Source of the DNA: Escherichia phage E26
DNA length: 64,000 nucleotides
Sequence record: MN655998.1
Direction: 5' to 3' (one strand)
Position numbers and translations under genes: made by a program. Of the stretch, positions 2,427-51,021 are shown one piece after another (the stretch's first letter is position 1; every line of letters begins with the position of its first letter). The notes beneath the pieces were generated by a model. That model searched no databases. It had not been told where the DNA came from and saw only the letters and a program-made list of their open reading frames with translations.

Positions 2427-4289
2427 TTACATGTGCTTAACGCGGTTTACCATCTCGGAGTGTTTCCCGTGGTTGAATGGACGCAGATCAACAGATCCAA
2501 GATATCCACTAACGCGACGGATAACATTCATCTTTTCCAGATTGTCGTTGCCGCAATCAGGACAAACAAAACCAGACTCGGTCGCTCTCATTTCCTTATT
2601 AGATCCGCATACATGACATACATCAGAAGGAGTATTAACACCGAAGTAGTGCAATTTATCCATTGCATAGTCTACTACAGTTTCAAGACCTTTCAGGTTG
2701 TTTTTCATGTCTGGGAACTCAACATAAGAGATCATGCCACCGGACGCCAGCCAGTGATAATCTTTCTCAAAGTCGATTTTCTCAAATGGTGTGACTTTCC
2801 GGTCTACGTCAAGGTGGAATGAGTTGGTGTACCAGTCTTTATCGGTAGCACCCTTAACAATACCAAATTGCTCTCGATCCAGTCGATTAAATCGATAGCA
2901 AAGGCTCTCGGCTGGCGTACCGTAAAGACTAAACCCAAGTCCGGTTTCATCCTTCCATTTTTCAGTATAATGACGCAAGATCTTAAGAATATGTTTACCG
3001 TATCGCTGCGCATCTTCCGAATCAAACGGATGAACACCAAACAGGACGCTCAATACCTCATGTAAACCAATATATCCAAGAGAGATACTAGCGCGACCAT
3101 CTTTCAACACTTCCAAAATTTCATCGTTTTGATGAATACGGAAAAATGCACCTTCTGTATACAGCACCGGAGCAACATTGGCTTTAGCGCCTTTTAAAGC
3201 GTCTACGCGACTCATGAGCGCATCAAAGCAAATAGGCATACGATTGGCTAGCTCTTGTTCGAATAGCTCAATTCTGCGCATTACAGACGCTTTACCAGCA
3301 CGAAGCGCGGCAATAAGGGCAATACGCGGAAGATTCAGAGTCACAACACCTAAGTTATTACGTCCGTCTAATACTTCTTCGCCTTTCTCATTATGCCACA
3401 CACCCAGGAAGCTACGACAACCCATCGGGCTAACCGGAACACTAGATCCAGTGATGCTACGGTTATTCTTCGCAGAGATATAATCAGGGTAAAGACGCTT
3501 ACTAGAACATTCCAATGCAAGTTGCTTAATGTCGTAGTTCGGATCTTCCGGTTTAAGGTTTAATCCTTCTTCTAAGAACATCACCAGCTTAGGAAACACC
3601 GGAGTTATACCATCTTTACCTAAACCTTTAGTTCGAACTTTCAGGATCGCTTTCTGAATCAGTTTTTCTTCCCAGCTAGTACCCATACCAAAGGTTAAAG
3701 TCACAAAAGGCGTTTGACCGTTGGTGGAGAACAAAGTGTTGATTTCATATTCCAACGCTTGATACCCGTCTAAAGTTTCTTTTTCTGTCTTCTCTTGTGC
3801 ATAGAGAGTATCAGCTTTGATTCCGTAGGTTTCGGCATCAGCAAGGTGTTTATGATATGTTTTCTCAACGTATGGCGCTAAAACCTGATCGATGTTTGCA
3901 ATTGTGGTCCCGCCATATTGATGACTTGCCACCTGTGCGATAATTTGAGCGGTTACAGCACAAGCAACGCCGATTGATTTCGGACTTTCGATTTGTGCGC
4001 TACCCAATTTAAAACCATTCTCTAACATGTCTTTGAGATTAACAAGACAGCAGTTAGTAAACGGCATAGCGGGTGCATAATCCATATCATGATAATGAAT
4101 ATCACCGTCTACATGCGCTTTATAGATGTGCTCAGGTAACACGGTTTTAGCAATCTGTTTAGACACAGCACCAGCAATCAGATCTCGACGTGTCGGGAAT
4201 GTTCGCGCGTCTTTGTTCGCGTTCTCTTTGCTTACTTCGTTTTCTTTACCCGTTGCGATCTCTGTAATGTCTTTGATTAGTTTTTCCAT
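2427..4289 (-). CDS. nrdD: anaerobic ribonucleoside-triphosphate reductase NrdD (glycyl radical enzyme)
   Basis: 620 aa; C-terminal zinc ribbon (CHVCGS...CPDCG) and glycyl radical motif RVSGYLG; ATG at 4289 with AGGTGA RBS. Confidence 0.95.
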   Translation of the reverse strand: MEKLIKDITEIATGKENEVSKENANKDARTFPTRRDLIAGAVSKQIAKTVLPEHIYKAHVDGDIHYHDMDYAPAMPFTNCCLVNLKDMLENGFKLGSAQIESPKSIGVACAVTAQIIAQVASHQYGGTTIANIDQVLAPYVEKTYHKHLADAETYGIKADTLYAQEKTEKETLDGYQALEYEINTLFSTNGQTPFVTLTFGMGTSWEEKLIQKAILKVRTKGLGKDGITPVFPKLVMFLEEGLNLKPEDPNYDIKQLALECSSKRLYPDYISAKNNRSITGSSVPVSPMGCRSFLGVWHNEKGEEVLDGRNNLGVVTLNLPRIALIAALRAGKASVMRRIELFEQELANRMPICFDALMSRVDALKGAKANVAPVLYTEGAFFRIHQNDEILEVLKDGRASISLGYIGLHEVLSVLFGVHPFDSEDAQRYGKHILKILRHYTEKWKDETGLGFSLYGTPAESLCYRFNRLDREQFGIVKGATDKDWYTNSFHLDVDRKVTPFEKIDFEKDYHWLASGGMISYVEFPDMKNNLKGLETVVDYAMDKLHYFGVNTPSDVCHVCGSNKEMRATESGFVCPDCGNDNLEKMNVIRRVSGYLGSVDLRPFNHGKHSEMVNRVKHM

Positions 4290-7823: not shown

Positions 7824-8636
7824 TCAATCTACGTTAGTTACATAAACTTCTTGCGTATCAGAAGACTTGCCACCTGAACGGTCTAGGCAATAGGTCTTAT
7901 TCAACAGGACGCAGTTTAAATCATTCCGCTTGATAAAGTCAAGAAGATGATCGTTTACCTTTCCCTTATGATGCGTGACATTACTGATACCAAACTGAAA
8001 ACCACGCGCCATAATAGATTCCACCCACCGATAGAATTTAATCTCTTCCTCGTCACTCCAGAACTTATTATATTCCGCAGAAGTGATAAGGTACGGCGGG
8101 TCCAAATAAACGAAATCACCTGGCAAGATCTCGATCTCGTCATAACGACCAGACGTAAAACTGATTCGACCGTCTTTGTTTTCTTCCTTAAAATTCAGGA
8201 CACGCTCTACCGCGTTTTCGTTAAAAGTCCGGCGACCAAAATTAGCATTAAATTCGCCCTTTCGGTTATGGCGGTTAATGTTGCTAAAACTGTGCTGAAT
8301 CAACACAAACAGCGATAGCGGATCTGGATTCTCGTTATACTTCTTACGGAATGCCATGTAAGCGTCTTTATCATCACGAGACAAACCATTTTCGGAAATA
8401 ATCCGATTGATTGTAGAAACCGGATCAGGACACGCATCAATGGCCTTGTAAGCGTCAATTAAACGATGGTCATAGTCATTAGCCAACACATCACCTTCGA
8501 CGTACAGAGACACGCTCAAACCGCCACAAAAGGCATCAACAAAGCGGTTATAGTGCTTAGGGAAATACTTACTAACACCTGGCAATAGCTTTTCCTTATT
8601 GCCAGTATAGGGAATTAAACCTAATGCTTTCTTCAT
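7824..8636 (-). CDS. dam: DNA adenine methyltransferase Dam (GATC-type, DPPY motif)
   Basis: 270 aa; IPYTGNK, FCGGLSV and DFVYLDPPY motifs matching T4 Dam; ATG at 8636. Confidence 0.88.
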   Translation of the reverse strand: MKKALGLIPYTGNKEKLLPGVSKYFPKHYNRFVDAFCGGLSVSLYVEGDVLANDYDHRLIDAYKAIDACPDPVSTINRIISENGLSRDDKDAYMAFRKKYNENPDPLSLFVLIQHSFSNINRHNRKGEFNANFGRRTFNENAVERVLNFKEENKDGRISFTSGRYDEIEILPGDFVYLDPPYLITSAEYNKFWSDEEEIKFYRWVESIMARGFQFGISNVTHHKGKVNDHLLDFIKRNDLNCVLLNKTYCLDRSGGKSSDTQEVYVTNVD

Positions 8637-9067
8637 TATCCCTTCCTCAAATAAGTTCGCTCAATCTCTACCAGTTCGAAAAAATCTTGCCAGTCGCAAG
8701 GAAAATTGCAGTTTCCGAAATGATCCTCTTTGTAAAGTTCTTTACCGGATGGCAGCTTAATATCTGTTACGCTGTAGTATCCGCAACAATCGCAATCACC
8801 CTCTGTATATTCTGTTTTGGTAGGAATATCCATCATTGCCAGATACAAAGGCACATCGTCTTGCTCAAAGTTCATGTAACCTTCATGGTCGAATGAAACA
8901 AAGTTATCATCACCACCGAAAGGGATATAATGGTCATAATCTGTTACAGGTTGACCGTGTAATTCCCATTCTACAATTTTAACATTACCGCTAAACTTGA
9001 TACCCATAATTTCAACAATAAAATGAGTATCGTCAATGTAAATCTTACCAGGAGTTGGATAAACCAT
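8636..9067 (-). CDS. hypothetical protein
   Basis: ORF with ATG at 9067; operon-like packing with neighbours. Confidence 0.5.
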   Translation of the reverse strand: MVYPTPGKIYIDDTHFIVEIMGIKFSGNVKIVEWELHGQPVTDYDHYIPFGGDDNFVSFDHEGYMNFEQDDVPLYLAMMDIPTKTEYTEGDCDCCGYYSVTDIKLPSGKELYKEDHFGNCNFPCDWQDFFELVEIERTYLRKG

Positions 9068-25455: not shown

Positions 25456-25782
25456 TTAGAAAGAAACAGTTTTCAAGAAATCCAGATTTTCAGTACCGAA
25501 AACAGAAAAGTAGTGTTTTCCTTTTTCGGTTTTAGAGAAAGCGATTGTCTTCTCTACATGGTGACGGAAGCCAGACAGACGATCACCCAGGTCAAGGCGG
25601 CAAGCGTAAGTAGTACCGTCTTCGAAAGTAACCTCGATTTGAGTTTTGTCATATTCGCTTTCATAGGCTTTTTCTGCCGCTTCCAGTGCTTTACGCTCGA
25701 AGTCTTCGAAGTGGAATACTTCGTTTGCGTTAGCGAATACAGAAGATTCAGAGAAGATAACTTTAACAGATACTGGTTTCAT
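25456..25782 (-). CDS. hypothetical protein
   Basis: ATG at 25782 behind AGGAGTATCAAA leader and promoter cassette. Confidence 0.5.
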   Translation of the reverse strand: MKPVSVKVIFSESSVFANANEVFHFEDFERKALEAAEKAYESEYDKTQIEVTFEDGTTYACRLDLGDRLSGFRHHVEKTIAFSKTEKGKHYFSVFGTENLDFLKTVSF

Positions 25783-40800: not shown

Positions 40801-40927
40801 TCCACTGTTTGACCAGTCGGCGGTAACATTCTCTATGTTCCGTGAACTTGTAGATAAACGGTTGAAGGATAATATAGGGAATCCACGCGATCCGAAGAAT
40901 CCGACACAGAGGAAAATTAATGGCTAA
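37841..40927 (+). CDS. 7: baseplate wedge initiator gp7
   Basis: Synteny and size (1028 aa vs about 1032 in T4). Confidence 0.8.
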   Translation: MIKAPSVTSLTIEKLSANQAYITWDDVGENFFYFVELAETRTRDGEIIPVDELSWVNLGYTAEQNWFEDKNLFPEYYYKFRVAVAAEGFEQSKWVETEEFQTFKTNAYNFSMMREFNLANEFIKEKFTYDNREYVKFNTDLIQASLMKEDFVFSPEYANMTNISNYIVVDENFHEIQDHIEKVCIDINRTMLAEMNGVLYLFERFQPIVKVSNDKGQSWKAYKAFNDRVGNPVSRTCVYQSKTTTYVLGYDRIFYGRQASDTRWSADDVRFSDDTITFAKVGDENDLGFDVEVFGVFSRLTGDTTKYAEAMACSDDYLWVGAKDVIRRIRLKNTPVDTVQGSPTFGEKIFDPDVIRVTGNDKAVIQKMDVIDGKLLVFVTGEVKQRYQDPTKPENVVPSDDAGVYLIGSDGLSFQRVFGNTPQEREYIQHGFSNMSTNGDEVFISHYNHHFESILPDPETAAKYELGEAVKYSQEPTYLTDKKIHQTTFRASYDDLRIWELGPQAYYNEADYTWMRRNGVRVWITNDNRPLVVYPEVIYTQEVDTSGILDQNRVNREVYDKGTVTCYLNNVKFEGFKQYASGVMFHKNTGEIIGFYQFNYRVRDQVGVYWKPTNVAFVAELQNQVREVPWVPVHYDREQDPDLRPLLNKMTPDSFLLENENFRKFSEYYLQFLSDGSGTYYNKLKNLIKNKYPREQDAYEYLWSEMNKRNIYADKNKRDAVVRFFESRKSDFYSTKGVEASYKFLFKLLYNEDVEIEVESQAGLEYDIVVSSTNIDEDIVGRTIYTPTGRANVTYLEREYEGGRLRWRVTIHNLIGRFEEGQVIKSEKTAFEGMILVGVRGKELLSSSIDYINRSRSQYTMKIKSALPVSRYANDVMRFVHPVGFGFIGVTLLTMFINSGLSMKHTETIIQSLKNYKFDSGLPSVYPDRVADLDVDGNIKKDPLTGKALYLTSPLIGEEFPVPPEYDQENSELFHGLKASERRFAMSPLFDQSAVTFSMFRELVDKRLKDNIGNPRDPKNPTQRKING

Positions 40928-41915
40928 TGAAAATAGTGTGATCTATCGCTCAATCATTACTAGTAAATTCAGAACGGAAAAACTTCTGAATTTCTATAAT
41001 TCTGTAGGCGATGAGGCAAATCAAATTACAATTTATGGAACGTTTGGACGTTCGGAGCCGTGGTCAGAAAACGAAAAAGAGGTGGGCTTTGCCCCACCTT
41101 ATCCGACCGATTCAACGGCTGGTGTTGTTGACATGTGGACCCATATGATGGGGGCGGTTAAGATTAACAAATCACTTCTTGATGCGGTTATCCCTCGTAA
41201 AGATTGGGGTGATACCGGACAGGATAACCCGCGCACATTCTTTATCAATGACATTGTTGTTGTCAACTCAGCACCATATAACCGAACTGATGTTGGTAGC
41301 GGCTGGATGGTGTATCGCGTAACCGATGTTCCTGATCGCGGTTACTGCTCGATTTCAAGCATTGATGCTAAAGTAGAGTGTTTGAAGTTGGGCGGAAAGT
41401 GGACCCCCACTCATGAATCAATTGCGCCACCTGTAGGAAAGGGCGATTCTATTGATATGGGTGATGGGTATCGTTGGGAATATCTGTACACAATTCCACC
41501 TGATGCGGCGATCAACCGTTGCACCAATGAACATATTGTTGTACCGTTCCCCGATGAACTGCGACAAGATCCGGCGCGTTGGGGCTATGACAATGTGATC
41601 ACCTGGTATAATGACTATAATCTGCTTTATCGGCTGAAAGTAGTAACTTTGCGTTTTCAGGCTTATATGGACTCTGCGCAATTCCCAACTACCGCGTTAG
41701 TGGGTAATACTGGTTTCCGTCAGTTAAGCATTATCCTTAACCCATTGGAAAAGAAAGCACGCCCTAGCGATCCAGACGTTAAAGCGGTTAACGATAAGTA
41801 CCGACCGCAAGACTTAGAGCCACACTCAGGAGAAATGATCTACATGGAAAACCGACAACCTATCGTTCGGTCATTAGATCAAACAGAACTTGTTTCTGTA
41901 TTGTTTGAGTTCTAA
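40920..41915 (+). CDS. 8: baseplate wedge protein gp8
   Basis: Synteny and size (331 aa). Confidence 0.75.
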   Translation: MANENSVIYRSIITSKFRTEKLLNFYNSVGDEANQITIYGTFGRSEPWSENEKEVGFAPPYPTDSTAGVVDMWTHMMGAVKINKSLLDAVIPRKDWGDTGQDNPRTFFINDIVVVNSAPYNRTDVGSGWMVYRVTDVPDRGYCSISSIDAKVECLKLGGKWTPTHESIAPPVGKGDSIDMGDGYRWEYLYTIPPDAAINRCTNEHIVVPFPDELRQDPARWGYDNVITWYNDYNLLYRLKVVTLRFQAYMDSAQFPTTALVGNTGFRQLSIILNPLEKKARPSDPDVKAVNDKYRPQDLEPHSGEMIYMENRQPIVRSLDQTELVSVLFEF

Positions 41916-41929
41916 GTGTATGATTTAAA

Positions 41930-41957
41930 AAGCCAATTCGAGAGAGTTGGCTTTTTC
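41930..41957 (+). terminator. rho-independent terminator after gene 8
   Basis: Hairpin AAGCCAA...TTGGCTT followed by TTTTT. Confidence 0.6.
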
Positions 41958-41968
41958 TATTTTGGGTG

Positions 41969-41997
41969 TTGACAGTCTTGTCTGGTAAAGGTATAAT
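41969..41997 (+). promoter_or_regulatory. sigma70-type promoter (TTGACA-N17-TATAAT) on plus strand inside late region
   Basis: Perfect -35 and -10 hexamers with 17-nt spacer 30 nt upstream of the inserted ORF at 42027. Confidence 0.7.
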
Positions 41998-42026
41998 GCT
42001 CACATCTAAACAACGGAGGATAAATT

Positions 42027-42284
42027 ATGGCACGTCGTAAATTTACAGATAATTGTGAAGCAATTCAGGTATCCCCTTGCGGTTGGGATGTGATCGCGAA
42101 CGGTGAAAAGATCGGCGAGATCATCGATCATACTCATTCATCACTAGCCGATTACACCGATGAACTATGGGAGGGTATCAACTTCATGAATGACACTAAA
42201 CGATTCAAGACTATCGACGAAGCTATCTATTTTGTGTATAATCCAACTTTCGGTATGTGGGGAACTAGAAAATGGCACGCGTAA
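42027..42284 (+). CDS. hypothetical protein (first gene of inserted cassette)
   Basis: 85 aa ORF with strong GGAGGA RBS directly downstream of the promoter. Confidence 0.5.
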   Translation: MARRKFTDNCEAIQVSPCGWDVIANGEKIGEIIDHTHSSLADYTDELWEGINFMNDTKRFKTIDEAIYFVYNPTFGMWGTRKWHA

Positions 42285-42601
42285 ATATTAAATTGCATTA
42301 CACAATGGGTAAACCAAAACATCCAATGCATAAAGTGTTTTGGGGCTTGCATCTTCAAGAAAAATGGCATGATAACTATTGGTTTTGTGACCATGATAAG
42401 AAGTGGCATTCTCAAGATGAAGTTAATGCGATGATGGAACAGGGTATAAAATTTAATTACTCTAATTATGACCATAGCATTACTTGTATTCGAAAATTGA
42501 AACGGTTTATTCGAAAGAATCCGCAATTTAAAAACTTTGTGTTCTTTATGTCTCATGTTTATTTGGGGCATAGCGTTACAGTAACAGCAAAGGTTAAATA
42601 A
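42272..42601 (+). CDS. hypothetical His/Trp-rich protein (second gene of inserted cassette)
   Basis: 109 aa ORF overlapping upstream gene; stop overlaps next start (TAATG). Confidence 0.45.
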   Translation: MARVNIKLHYTMGKPKHPMHKVFWGLHLQEKWHDNYWFCDHDKKWHSQDEVNAMMEQGIKFNYSNYDHSITCIRKLKRFIRKNPQFKNFVFFMSHVYLGHSVTVTAKVK

Positions 42602-43440
42602 TGGCACGACTTTCTAAACAAGAACAAAAATTACACGATCGGGTGATGGAGTTGATTAATTCAGATCGCCCATTGACATATGAAGAAAAAGAATTTTGCT
42701 ATAATAACTATCATGGCGATGGGCTAGGTGGTTCCGGTGCATTCTTTACCCCAGAAGGGCTTGCATGGGATTTTACCATCGATGCACATTGCACAGGAAA
42801 AGTATTAGATCTTTGTGCTGGGATCGGTCGCTTATCTTTTTGTATGTTACATCGTTGTAAGTCAGAAAAGATCGTATGCGTCGAACTCAATCCAGAATTT
42901 GCGCGGATTGGCAAGCGACTATTACCGGAAGCAGAATGGATCACCAGCGATGTATTCGAATTTGAGTCAAACGAAAAATTCGATGTTGTAATTAGCAATC
43001 CACCTTTCGGGAAAATCAATACAACCGACACAAAGGATGTATTTGAGTACACTGGCGGCGAATTTGAATTTAAGGTTATGACGCTAGGGCAAAAGTTTGC
43101 CGATGTTGGCTATTTTATTGTTCCTGTGGGTTCCGCTGGTTTTGCTTATTCCGGCAGACCTTATTATGACGGGACCATGAAGTCTAATAAATATCTAAAA
43201 TGGAGCAAACAAACTGGTTTGGTGACTTATGCCGGATGTGGGATCGATACATCAATCTATCGCGATGAATGGCACAGTACCAACGTTTTAACAGAAGTGG
43301 TTGAGGTTCGGTATTACGAGAAAGAAGCCGTAGAAGCGCCTAAATCGCGTCCTAACAAACAAATAGAAGAAAGTAAGGAGATTACCTTACCGAAACAGGA
43401 AAGCGAGTCTGGGACGCTCTCAGATTTGTTTGGCATTTAA
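42601..43440 (+). CDS. orphan N6-adenine (amino) methyltransferase, gamma-class
   Basis: Motifs FFTP, VLDLCAGIGR (SAM binding) and VVISNPPFG (catalytic NPPF) in N6_Mtase-like order; no adjacent restriction gene. Confidence 0.7.
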   Translation: MARLSKQEQKLHDRVMELINSDRPLTYEEKEFCYNNYHGDGLGGSGAFFTPEGLAWDFTIDAHCTGKVLDLCAGIGRLSFCMLHRCKSEKIVCVELNPEFARIGKRLLPEAEWITSDVFEFESNEKFDVVISNPPFGKINTTDTKDVFEYTGGEFEFKVMTLGQKFADVGYFIVPVGSAGFAYSGRPYYDGTMKSNKYLKWSKQTGLVTYAGCGIDTSIYRDEWHSTNVLTEVVEVRYYEKEAVEAPKSRPNKQIEESKEITLPKQESESGTLSDLFGI

Positions 43441-43445
43441 TTATA

Positions 43446-43470
43446 AGCCGTCCTTGTGGGCGGCTTTTTT
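43446..43470 (+). terminator. rho-independent terminator closing the inserted cassette
   Basis: Hairpin GCCGTCC-TTGT-GGGCGGC followed by TTTTTT. Confidence 0.75.
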
Positions 43471-43480
43471 GTATGTATTT

Positions 43481-43488
43481 TATAAATA
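43481..43488 (+). promoter_or_regulatory. T4-type late promoter (TATAAATA)
   Basis: Exact TATAAATA 28 nt upstream of gene 9 start. Confidence 0.65.
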
Positions 43489-43515
43489 ATACATCATAAC
43501 ATGAGGAATTAAACA

Positions 43516-44370
43516 ATGGCACAAGTTCCAAAGAAAAGAATAGACACCGGTACTGTCGGCAATCCATCGACTGGCGATATCTTATATGATGGCGGCAATA
43601 AAATTAACGATAACTTTGATTCAATATATGACGCATTTGCTGATCAGCGGTTTAAAGACGTAGACCACGGTGTGGGAAGAATGGTTATTCATGCAACCGG
43701 ATACTATCAGAAGCATCCACGTCAAAGCTACGCGGGTTCCGCTGTTGAGATTGGGAGTCTACACGATATCGATACAACTCAAGGCGCACTTATTGCTATT
43801 CTACCTAAAGCAAAGGTCGGCGAGGGTGTTGTATTCATAAATAGTAACGGTAGCCTTTCAACGACGACACCGCTCAATATTCGAACTCAAGCAGGTGATT
43901 CTATTAGCGGTTATTCCGGTGATGCTACAATAACACAACCATTTTCAAAAGTCACTGTTTGGTGTACTGCCGTTGAAGGTAGTCGCGTAACGTGGCGATT
44001 GGGTATCGAAAGTATGTTTACCGATACAACAACGCCATTAGATAAAACAGTTAACGTAACTGGAGTAGCAACAAACGTTGCTATTGCCGCAAAAACAGAA
44101 TACGTTTCCATCAAATTATTAACTACCGCTAGCAATACATCCGGTTCAAAAATGCGTTCAAGTGAAACGCTACTGATGATTGATTCTAAAGCCGGAAAAG
44201 TTTATGCGACGGAATATGCAGTTTTGCAGAAGACAGAAGATGAACTATACATGGTTCGTTATTTCATCGGTTCCGGCGATAAAGTATATGCAGAGTATAA
44301 GGCTACTGGCGAAAATATTCGTTTAGCAGTTAAAGCCGTAGACACTATTAAAATCGGGGTTGCTACATGA
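43516..44370 (+). CDS. 9: baseplate wedge tail fiber connector gp9
   Basis: Synteny and size (284 aa vs about 288 in T4). Confidence 0.75.
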   Translation: MAQVPKKRIDTGTVGNPSTGDILYDGGNKINDNFDSIYDAFADQRFKDVDHGVGRMVIHATGYYQKHPRQSYAGSAVEIGSLHDIDTTQGALIAILPKAKVGEGVVFINSNGSLSTTTPLNIRTQAGDSISGYSGDATITQPFSKVTVWCTAVEGSRVTWRLGIESMFTDTTTPLDKTVNVTGVATNVAIAAKTEYVSIKLLTTASNTSGSKMRSSETLLMIDSKAGKVYATEYAVLQKTEDELYMVRYFIGSGDKVYAEYKATGENIRLAVKAVDTIKIGVAT

Positions 44371-50975: not shown

Positions 50976-50984
50976 TGTTTACAA

Positions 50985-51021
50985 TCCGTTCTCGTTTATG
51001 TATAATCAAGGCGAGAACGGA
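50985..51021 (+). promoter_or_regulatory. 10-bp stem-loop upstream of homing endonuclease start
   Basis: TCCGTTCTCG/CGAGAACGGA stem; loop contains TATAAT-like hexamer; RBS lies just 3' of stem. Confidence 0.5.

Follow-up and report, generated by a model that had tools for sequence, protein, structure and literature searches.

A methyltransferase with a predicted sliding-clamp tail in a putative early transcription unit that separates baseplate genes 8 and 9 of Krischvirus phages

In the window analyzed here, that is, the whole 64,000-nucleotide stretch of Escherichia phage E26 DNA (MN655998.1), which was assigned to the RB49-like coliphages of the genus Krischvirus, the baseplate genes 8 and 9 are separated by an insert of 1.5 kb that reads as an early transcription unit of three ORFs with its own regulatory elements (Table 1). 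Genes 8 and 9 are contiguous in T4-type phages: with gp8 and gp9 as a joint query, a single stretch of 1.85-2.05 kb was matched in 1402 of the 1485 records compared, and the match was split in two in Krischvirus records only. The first-pass annotation had taken the locus for an insert that T4 lacks, equipped with an early promoter and terminators of its own, which is borne out by the sites read in the sequence; the sequence features that it had listed, including the hairpin, the consensus sigma70 promoter, the strong terminator and the late promoter for gene 9, were all located at or close to their positions. The genes at this junction were previously annotated in RB49 as ORF140w-143w, the promoter and terminators of the unit are already annotated in the GEC-3S record, and, of 58 matching Krischvirus records, 57 carried the same cassette. 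Since every Krischvirus already has this cassette annotated, it is in itself no novelty.

Table 1. Genes, regulatory elements and protein motifs at the gene 8-gene 9 junction (positions in the window)
Feature	Position	Strand	Evidence
Gene 8, baseplate wedge subunit, 5' flank	40920..41915	+	Pfam Phage-Gp8 PF09215 2e-143; PHROG 977
PeSL-type regulatory unit: stem-loop, T-tract, early promoter, conserved leader, Shine-Dalgarno	41917..42026	+	Alignment with other copies in the window
Predicted stem-loop and intrinsic terminator for late transcription out of gene 8	41927..41956	+	13-pair hairpin, T-run; GEC-3S annotation
Predicted sigma70-type early promoter TTGACA-N17-TATAAT	41969..41997	+	12/12 match; GEC-3S annotation
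ORF1, 85 aa, acidic, pI 5.2	42027..42284	+	Full-length match to PHROG 16603 (function unknown)
ORF2, 109 aa, basic, pI 9.8, His-rich (10 His, 2 Cys)	42272..42601	+	Match to PHROG 12630 (function unknown)
Hypervariable/mosaic patch within ORF2	42316..42512	+	48-88% nucleotide identity to JSE
ORF3, 279-aa SAM-dependent methyltransferase, predicted N6-adenine-type and DNA-acting	42601..43440	+	PHROG 3820 5.9e-117; Pfam MTS 4.5e-10, Eco57I 3.4e-6; PADLOC Mad2 4e-17
Motif X FFTP, residues 48-51	42742..42753	+	GAFFTP invariant in 25 diverse homologs
Motif I VLDLCAGIGR, SAM binding, residues 68-77	42802..42831	+	CAGIG (72-76) invariant; within Pfam MTS and Methyltransf_25 matches
Motif IV NPPFG, catalytic, residues 133-137	42997..43011	+	Invariant; 3' of motif I, the gamma-class order
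Disordered linker, residues about 249-271	43345..43413	+	pLDDT < 50 for residues 249-273
C-terminal peptide TLSDLFGI, predicted gp45 sliding-clamp-binding motif	43414..43437	+	Likeness to gp43 C-terminus
Predicted intrinsic terminator closing the early unit	43445..43466	+	9-pair hairpin, 6 GC pairs, T-run; GEC-3S annotation
T4-type late promoter TATAAATA before gene 9	43481..43488	+	Direct sequence reading
Gene 9, baseplate wedge and tail-fibre connector, 3' flank	43516..44370	+	Pfam T4_gp9_10_N PF07880 1.4e-40; PHROG 967

Judged by its sequence, the hairpin-promoter element at the head of the unit is a member of the PeSL repeat family described in RB49 and phi1 (Arbiol et al., 2010, PMC2839356; Comeau et al., 2014, PMC4122927). 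It combines a sigma70 promoter, a stable stem-loop and a T-rich tract, and it is repeated and lies 5' of ORFans, like the PeSL cassettes of those phages, in which a stem-loop terminator adjoins a consensus sigma70 early promoter and many genomic copies each precede ORFans. Four further copies were found on the minus strand of the window, with -35 hexamers at 2383, 13450, 15864 and 28807, and the five aligned copies share a mean column identity of 73% across about 115 nt. For other PeSLs, both promoter and terminator activity has been demonstrated experimentally in vivo (PMC2839356). PeSLs mostly occur in hyperplastic regions and mark variable loci, whereas the copy in the cassette is fixed at one site of the baseplate operon throughout the genus and beyond, and only the cargo between promoter and methyltransferase varies.

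The other regulatory sites are also shared with relatives. A counterpart of the hairpin was seen in three metagenomic relatives, the TTGACA hexamer of the promoter, which is the only perfect sigma70 match between 40800 and 44500, is kept in metagenomic relatives, the position of the closing terminator is conserved, and the TATAAATA box is found ahead of gene 9 in relatives L098, L100 and L101 as well. The totals of promoter-like and terminator-like matches in the region were not above the shuffled expectation, so the case for these elements rests on the quality and placement of the sites and on their conservation in relatives. A scan of 41500-43900 with Rfam gave nothing near any gathering score.

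Comparison with these relatives revises the earlier picture of the insert in two respects. A recent or unusual acquisition is not supported, for the cassette is fixed across the genus and also present in more divergent relatives, in which the frame of hairpin, promoter, methyltransferase, terminator and late promoter is retained where gp8 identity falls to 80-89%. Nor do the three genes form a self-contained unit: in some uncultured relatives the 8-9 junction has the promoter, the methyltransferase and the terminator without ORF1 and ORF2, in others an unrelated 154-aa ORF lies 5' of the methyltransferase instead, and the adjacent ORF1-ORF2 pair exists without the methyltransferase in rV5-like phages. 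The first-pass annotation had considered that the same three genes might occur here in well-characterized relatives with a known role; the genes are indeed at the junction in RB49, phi1 and JSE, but a known role for them was not found, and the literature searched for RB49, RB43, KP15 and KP27 yielded no functional data for the ORF3-type methyltransferase.

The translational coupling proposed for the three ORFs agrees with their spacing, the ATG of ORF2 lying 13 nt 5' of the ORF1 stop and a TAATG being common to ORF2 and ORF3. No nuclease or other domain was detected in ORF1 or ORF2 with Pfam, NCBIfam and PADLOC, in which ORF1 had no match at all, and the homology search returned one cluster for ORF1 and five for ORF2. 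Homologs of ORF1, which is broken in the RB49 record, were found only in Krischvirus and in rV5-like phages, with about 68-70% identity in the latter. A profile search with ORF2 among 1.84 billion representatives gave only six matches at E <= 0.001, of which one was a cluster covering the full length, three were short fragments and two, of ~104 aa, were marginal, and its AF2 model (pLDDT 53) was of too low confidence to use. The GC content of ORF2 is 33%, compared with 41-45% in neighboring genes; its variable patch is represented by at least three alleles in Krischvirus, and the DNA around the patch is mostly 92-100% identical to JSE. This hypervariability suggests a role of ORF2 in host interaction or counter-defense. 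RB43 and KP27 share the three-gene layout, with two small ORFs 5' of the methyltransferase; these ORFs were considered as remote homologs of ORF1 and ORF2 and rejected, as no similarity was seen with BLASTP and one of the pair is a membrane protein.

ORF3 had been described from its motifs as a gamma-class amino-methyltransferase with no restriction partner, and both statements stand. FFTP, VLDLCAGIGR and NPPFG are all present, in the order X-I-IV, and invariant across the family, for which 1729 homologs were found; among 25 of these, with identities down to 46% and tailless ones included, ~50 further positions are invariant, indicative of selection on enzymatic activity. The AF2 model has a Rossmann-type fold, and the motif order points to an enzyme of the N6-adenine type. 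Its neighbors are gp8, ORF1, ORF2 and gp9, and in relatives the methyltransferase can stand alone. It is also a second methylase beside Dam, as proposed earlier: Dam is encoded at 7827-8660 on the minus strand (PF02086, 1.6e-29), and ORF3 has no Pfam match to PF02086, that is, it is not of the Dam/D12 class. Like T4 Dam, ORF3 is phage-encoded, has no cognate nuclease, is presumed to act on phage DNA and would be expressed early, as its sigma70-type promoter suggests; T4 Dam, however, belongs to the D12/alpha class, whereas ORF3 has the gamma order and a clamp-type tail. Compared with Type I HsdM, M.TaqI, M.BseCI and Mad2 of MADS systems, ORF3 is far smaller, with a core of about 238 aa, and has no TRD-like Pfam match and no evident specificity-subunit partner; its C-terminal half is particular to the family, in which residues 140-238 form a conserved subdomain. 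RB49 p189, the third annotated "DNA methyltransferase," was considered as a paralog and rejected, being unrelated to ORF3 and without a Pfam match.

The C-terminus of ORF3 resembles that of the phage DNA polymerase. In RB49, gp43 ends in ...ASLTDLFDI, and the methyltransferases end in ...TLSDLF[GD]I; the RB49 tails themselves, TLSDLFDI and SLTDLFDI, agree at 6 of 8 positions, and the tail of relative L101 (TLTDLFDI) agrees with gp43 at 7 of 8. Among 671 genome ORFs, only two, gp43 and the ORF3-type methyltransferase, end in [ST]L[ST]DLF[DG]I, and a looser tail pattern adds gp55, a known clamp binder, along with two unannotated short ORFs. The linker differs among Krischvirus copies (PKQESESG, PEQETASG, PEDKSPSG), and the end motif is constant. 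The likeness exists at the peptide level only; a copied DNA segment was rejected as its source, as the two tails use different codons and have unrelated flanks.

It has been established that gp43, gp55 and gp33 bind the sliding clamp gp45 by interchangeable hydrophobic and acidic peptides, located at the extreme C-terminus on unstructured, sequence-variable linkers (PMC2988020), and the ORF3 tail has both of these sequence traits. We predict that it is a clamp-binding motif, copying the gp43 C-terminus at the position of the gp45-binding peptide. This putative motif sits on a methyltransferase, an enzyme not among the gp45 clients named in that review, and in the literature searched, no methyltransferase of bacteria or phages was described as a client of the sliding clamp. 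The methyltransferase tail of RB43 and KP27-type phages (...NLFTFTIE) is only loosely like the gp43 tail of the same phages (...SLNTLFGDDW), and exact co-variation of the two tails was looked for in RB43 and was absent.

Homologs on elements that rely on the host replisome for their replication, including temperate phages, megaplasmids and bacterial genomes, end in the beta-clamp motif QL[SD]LF, a consensus given as QL(S/D)LF in PMC9690074. For example, a lambdoid phage copy ends in QQLDLFGEAA, the copy on the megaplasmid pTTS12 ends in AQLSLFDAA after a long Pro/Ala linker, and copies from Alpha- and Betaproteobacteria have ...QLSLF or ...QLDLFAMAA at the end. Beta-type tails were observed at 32 of 41 mid-size viral loci, compared with 1 of 1690 control ORFs from the same loci. 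The closest non-phage relatives, which are enterobacterial island copies with 53-61% identity, are tailless, and so are jumbo-phage copies. From these termini, the tail type appears to follow the replisome that copies the element, being of the gp45 type or the beta-clamp type. There is perhaps an even chance that ORF3 represents a large, uncharacterized family of mobile-element DNA adenine methyltransferases that ride the sliding clamp of the replisome by which their element is copied, by means of a polymerase-tail copy in T4-type phages and of QL[SD]LF in temperate phages, megaplasmids and chromosomal elements. The arrangement predicted for ORF3 resembles that of DNMT1 and PCNA, in which a DNA methyltransferase with a short clamp-interaction motif methylates newly replicated DNA (PMC9690074). 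DNMT1, however, is a C5-cytosine maintenance enzyme of another family with an internal PIP box, whereas ORF3 is of the N6-adenine type, has its motif at the C-terminus and is carried by mobile elements, and its family, unlike DNMT1, exchanges the motif between clamp types. The clamp-type tail on a methyltransferase and its switch with replisome type appear to be new here.

We propose that the PeSL element would halt late read-through from gene 8 and fire the sigma70 early promoter, that the terminator would close the early unit, and that the late promoter would then restart gene 9. The conserved cargo would be a small orphan gamma-type SAM-dependent N6-adenine methyltransferase with a disordered linker and an eight-residue peptide, which may be produced from the onset of infection, dock on the gp45 clamps that are loaded onto phage DNA during replication and methylate adenines co-replicatively, such that the cytosine-unmodified genome would be modified before packaging. 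Escape from host restriction would be the most plausible gain, and family members on elements copied by the host replisome would have their tail swapped for the beta-clamp motif. The anti-restriction or epigenetic role put forward in the first-pass annotation remains an inference. The cytosines of RB49 are unmodified (PMC4041780), which we count as a need for protection, and its DNA is cut by DraI, NheI and HpaII (PMC4041780, Fig. S1), so methylation, if present, is not blanket, or these enzymes are insensitive to it. We favor, with moderate confidence, the joint reading that the insert forms an early transcription unit of its own within the late baseplate operon of Krischvirus, that ORF1 and ORF2 constitute a separate, exchangeable two-gene ORFan module between the promoter and a methyltransferase that does not need them, and that clamp-recruited, co-replicative methylation of phage DNA is the likely function of ORF3. 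Counted against this reading are the cleavage of RB49 DNA by these three enzymes, the Dam already encoded, the target-recognition domain not recognized in ORF3, the loose tails of RB43 and KP27, and the tailless relatives.

The same biochemical evidence would fit a clamp-tethered DNA adenine methylation that does not serve restriction evasion, and instead provides a self mark against those phage nucleases by which host DNA is degraded or tunes replication, late transcription or packaging. RB49 has denA (EndoII) and several HNH endonucleases, and its cytosine is unmodified, leaving no hmC for discrimination (PMC4041780); moreover, gp45 is also an activator of late transcription (PMC2988020), so a clamp client could affect this process. 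However, the beta-tailed members belong to temperate phages and plasmids, which do not break down host DNA and for which general anti-restriction fits better, and we consider this alternative rather unlikely.

It is less likely still that ORF3 methylates adenines in RNA, as METTL5, Erm/KsgA or TrmN would, acting early on host or phage rRNA or tRNA, with an incidental tail likeness. PH1948 was the best match of the methyltransferase profile among PDB chains, all of which matched weakly (E >= 1e-4), NCBIfam gave weak matches to RsmC and TrmN, that to RsmC scoring far under its cut-off, and the RB49 depositors noted a likeness to rRNA guanine-N2 methyltransferase. Nevertheless, alignments to HsdM-type DNA methyltransferases extend over 206-218 residues, compared with 171 for METTL5, and take in the N-terminal helices and the FFTP motif of ORF3, while the N-terminal motif of METTL5 differs from GAFFTP, and no TRMT112-like partner is evident for ORF3, in contrast to METTL5/PH1948. 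The PADLOC matches, which include Type II MTase profiles, are to DNA methyltransferases, with alignments that begin at FFTP. Clamp-type tails, which switch type with the replisome of the element, would be sensible only for a DNA-associated enzyme, and carriage of the family in our survey by phages, plasmids, prophage-like contigs and one chromosomal island likewise points to DNA. With the clamp-type tails and the PADLOC profiles, a predicted DNA substrate is better supported than the first-pass annotation could tell.

A third alternative holds that the tail is the functional part, ORF3 being mainly a competitor or regulator at gp45, for example in the timing of replication versus late transcription, with methylation secondary or lost. 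The tail closely reproduces that of the polymerase, and gp43, gp55 and gp33 compete for common clamp sites (PMC2988020). We nevertheless regard it as very improbable, given the invariance of the catalytic core in tailed and tailless homologs alike. Least credible of all is a PrmC/HemK-like protein glutamine methyltransferase, the name "release factor glutamine methyltransferase" that several phage records use, since the top NCBIfam match, to PrmC (7.5e-10), reaches 38.7 bits against a cut-off of 199, ORF3 has NPPF where HemK has NPPY, and clamp-type tails speak against a protein substrate.

Phage-therapy collections include Krischvirus phages, which gives determinants of restriction sensitivity practical weight. 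If the reading of a clamp-riding methyltransferase family is true, prokaryotes and viruses would have their own counterpart of DNMT1-PCNA, and mobile DNA that replicates fast would have a route to complete co-replicative methylation, hence to restriction evasion. Confirmation would also add a new client class to the gp45 and beta-clamp "tool-belts" and would explain full methylation during rapid replication in cytosine-unmodified T4-type phages, temperate phages and megaplasmids. In addition, a small methyltransferase with a terminal clamp motif would serve as a sequence signature for replication-coupled modification enzymes, and would point to a DNA substrate for a family that is at present variously labeled as DNA methyltransferase, RNA methylase, PrmC or hypothetical.

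The 1.5-kb cassette is flanked by the baseplate genes gp8 and gp9, whose identities were confirmed with Pfam, and all features named in the first-pass annotation are present in the sequence. ORF1 and ORF2 overlap by 13 nt, ORF2 and ORF3 share TAATG, and of all plus-strand sites in the window only the cassette promoter fits the sigma70 consensus perfectly, with a one-mismatch site at 50978-51006. All three ORFs start with ATGGCACG (Met-Ala-Arg; 42027, 42272 and 42601), and gene 9 (43516) starts with ATGGCACA.

Features of the cassette and related elements in the window
Feature	Position	Strand	Remark
gp8	end at 41915	+	Pfam-confirmed identity
Hairpin with T-run	41927-41956	+	13 pairs
sigma70 promoter	41969-41997	+	12/12
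ORF1	42027-42284	+	
ORF2	42272-42601	+	
ORF2 divergent patch, sharp bounds	42316-42512	+	nucleotide identity to JSE 48-88%
ORF3	42601-43440	+	
Terminator	43445-43466	+	strong
TATAAATA, late promoter before gp9	43481-43488	+	
gp9	start at 43516	+	Pfam-confirmed identity
Dam, D12-class	7827-8660	-	PF02086, 1.6e-29; early region, beside nrdC/gene 49 equivalents
PeSL-like copies (-35 hexamers)	2383, 13450, 15864, 28807	-	alignment with cassette unit; GC hairpin directly upstream

The window derives from a Krischvirus, an RB49-like "pseudo-T-even" coliphage, and a 2.4-kb query over the cassette region matched 58 phage records at 90-99% identity, including RB49, phi1, JSE and GEC-3S, with phage ELT4 as the top match (99.4%). 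The cassette genes are named ORF140w-143w in RB49, and the GEC-3S annotation already has a terminator, a promoter and a terminator at the matching places. As first described, the cassette is therefore ordinary, being already annotated and genus-wide. The observation itself was confirmed, including the insertion between genes 8 and 9 relative to T4: a joined gp8+gp9 query found 1485 T4-type records, 1402 of which matched in one place of 1.85-2.05 kb, indicating that gp8 and gp9 are adjacent there as in T4, and the records in which the query was split over two places were those of Krischvirus. In addition, the Krischvirus SAP is reported to carry modified cytosines of unknown pathway, whereas in TB34, to which it is 99.96% identical, the cytosines are canonical (PMC13390438); both carry the cassette, which thus does not explain their difference.

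The regulatory unit of the cassette is a promoter-early stem-loop (PeSL), a strong sigma70 promoter combined with a terminator stem-loop (PMC2839356). About 50 of these elements each were reported in RB49 and phi1 by Arbiol et al. (PMC2839356), mainly in hyperplastic regions, with "a few" in virion modules beside genes without known function. The window holds four minus-strand copies that align with the cassette unit over ~115 nt (73% mean column identity) and share with it the hairpin, T-tract, GGGTGTTGACA, TATAATGCnCACATCGAAAC and a Shine-Dalgarno sequence. The early region has many PeSL-like early promoters on its minus strand, with further near-consensus sites between 600 and 32700.

The first-pass annotation was supported only in part: its reading of the insert as a "self-contained three-gene cassette" did not hold, since the cassette proved to be composite, with ORF1/ORF2 separable from the methyltransferase. 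Outside Krischvirus, ORF1 and ORF2 occur as an adjacent pair (~68-71% identity), overlapping as in the cassette, in the rV5-like coliphages FV3, FFH2 and HMD-6. In HMD-6 (2756-3330 of the compared locus) the pair is followed by unrelated small ORFs, among which no methyltransferase was found, and no rV5-like phage was listed among the matches of the methyltransferase search. Conversely, three metagenomic relatives (gp8 80-89% and methyltransferase 57-67% identical to the window) carry the methyltransferase at the gp8-gp9 junction within the hairpin, TTGACA promoter, terminator and TATAAATA frame. ORF1/ORF2 are missing from that junction in two of them (L098/L099 and L101), and the third (L100) has an unrelated 154-aa ORF. 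Thus, the methyltransferase module is old and conserved, with ORF1/ORF2 as exchangeable cargo behind the promoter and ahead of the methyltransferase; the pair looks like a two-gene module traded between unrelated Escherichia coli myovirus lineages.

Both small proteins have full-length matches to PHROGs without known function and none in Pfam, NCBIfam or PADLOC. They are near-ORFans, with one cluster for ORF1 and five for ORF2 in a search of 5.8 billion proteins, and an ORF2 profile search of 1.84 billion representatives gave only six matches at E <= 0.001, one of them a full-length cluster. At least three ORF2 alleles (>=95%, 87% and ~73% protein identity) are present in Krischvirus; the gene is AT-rich (33% GC), and its hypervariable patch lies in DNA mainly 92-100% identical to JSE, which suggests either allelic replacement or diversifying selection. 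In the RB49 type record AY343333 (2026-2272 of the compared locus), ORF1 is broken up into the short ORFs 140w and 141w, and ~11-13 nt present in other Krischvirus genomes are missing from the region, which points either to a dispensable ORF1 in that stock or to a sequencing error in the record.

The assignment of ORF3 as a methyltransferase with FFTP, VLDLCAGIGR and NPPFG motifs was borne out by motifs and fold: GAFFTP, CAGIG and NPPFG do not vary within the family and follow the gamma order, and no nuclease partner is present. The AF2 model is good (pLDDT 84.5, pTM 0.80), with figures of ~14 for KsgA/Erm, 12.5 for PrmC and 12.2 for RsmC; the NCBIfam scores for PrmC and RsmC are far under their cut-offs, and the PADLOC matches are DNA methyltransferases (Mad2, 4e-17, and several Type II profiles beginning at GAFFTP). 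Homologues (n=1729) were found in other T4-type genera (RB43/RB16 and KP27, where the gene lies between 41 and 61.1, and GAP161), in jumbo phages, in Sinorhizobium, Dickeya and Aeromonas phages, on Pseudomonas megaplasmids and Streptomyces and Agrobacterium plasmids, and in an island of Citrobacter and other Enterobacterales. No experimental work on the family was found in the literature. The phage does already encode Dam, whose RB49 counterpart is annotated dam and whose map position differs from that of T4 dam.

Several relatives deserve mention. On the Citrobacter freundii chromosome (L003-L006) a tailless 238-aa homologue lies by bssR/yliH at the edge of an island that holds small unannotated ORFs, IS elements and an HNH protein; this homologue is very common in Citrobacter (1645 blocks of the collection listed), and some strains have a second ORF of 238-242 aa head-to-head with it. 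The 389-aa member of Dickeya phage JA29 (A0A384ZXJ6, a BFVD match), for which a DNA methylase N-4/N-6 domain is annotated, may combine an ORF3-type methyltransferase with another DNA methyltransferase domain in one fused protein. RB49p189 (20891-21607 (-) of locus L013, NC_005066; record 115890-116606), is a "DNA methyltransferase" according to RefSeq, but it does not resemble ORF3 and gave no Pfam match, so that the label may be unfounded.

Phage members of the family have a C-terminal extension that chromosomal members of 236-242 aa lack, and residues 249-273 of ORF3 are predicted to be disordered. ORF3 ends in ...ESGTLSDLFGI, other Krischvirus copies in ...TLSDLFDI, the methyltransferase of a 67%-identical relative in ...TLTDLFDI, and the RB49 DNA polymerase gp43 in ...VASLTDLFDI. 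The C-terminal pattern [ST]L[ST]DLF[DG]I is found in just two of the 671 ORFs (>=40 aa, all frames) that cover one Krischvirus genome equivalent, namely gp43 and the methyltransferase; with a looser pattern, gp55 (...PSLDQFYEIEN) and two short ORFs lacking annotation also qualify. A duplicated DNA segment of gp43 was ruled out as the source of the tail, because the two sequences use different synonymous codons and have unrelated flanks; the similarity is at the peptide level. The proteins gp43, gp55 and gp33 bind the sliding clamp gp45 through interchangeable C-termini, carried on unstructured linkers that tolerate sequence change, and the RB69 clamp has been co-crystallised with 11 C-terminal polymerase residues (PMC2988020). 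Separately, a 108-aa ORF (25456-25782 (-)) ends in ...TENLDFLKTVSF, where LDFL recalls clamp-binding tails but falls short of the extreme C-terminus.

The distribution of tails suggests that tail type follows the replisome. Among 80 IMG/VR loci surveyed, three of Krischvirus type end in DLF[DG]I (150-165 kb contigs and one 12-kb fragment), nine of RB43/KP27 type in F.F.IE (142-180 kb contigs and two short fragments), and 32 on 12-90 kb contigs in QL[SD]LF or a close variant of it (for example QASLFGDAA or QADLFGVAA); tails are absent from Enterobacterial ~30-kb contigs and jumbo phages. QL(S/D)LF is the published consensus for binding the bacterial beta clamp (PMC9690074), and a beta-type motif lies within the 16 C-terminal residues of 32 of 41 methyltransferases versus one of 1690 control ORFs from the same 41 loci. 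Similarly, a lambdoid-phage homologue, with the O/P replication genes on one side and NinB on the other, ends in ...QQLDLFGEAA, and that of megaplasmid pTTS12 in a Pro/Ala-rich linker of ~80 residues and ...AQLSLFDAA. In bacterial genomes, ...QLSLF is the exact end of Alphaproteobacterial copies, those of Burkholderiales end in ...QLDLFAMAA and a Devosia copy in ...QLTLDLLA, and Enterobacterales copies are tailless as well. The weakest link of the clamp argument is RB43, whose methyltransferase tail (...NLFTFTIE) matches that of its gp43 (...SLNTLFGDDW) only loosely. An RB43-type methyltransferase with the tail ...AQNLFTFTIE was also seen on a 178-kb contig, the size of a T4-type genome, in an assembly labelled Flagellimonas marina (L115), which is probably a phage contig within a bacterial assembly. 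In the 45.9-kb contig L096, the locus of the beta-tailed methyltransferase holds a further 289-aa ORF that likewise ends in a motif of this kind (...PDQLDLFGAAA) and is possibly another clamp client of that phage.

The clamp-type tails are the strongest argument on hand that the substrate would be DNA, not RNA or protein. DNMT1-PCNA is the known analogue of a clamp-coupled methyltransferase; searches of an incomplete literature collection turned up no methyltransferase of bacteria or phages that had been presented as a clamp client, and an earlier description may exist. The clamp-type tail and the replisome-matched tails of the family are apparently an undescribed and easily testable feature. 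RB49 is without hmC (PMC4041780). We propose that the methyltransferase tail binds gp45 and that the clamp-bound enzyme would therefore act on replicating DNA, so that progeny genomes would be methylated and a cytosine-unmodified phage may be shielded from restriction.
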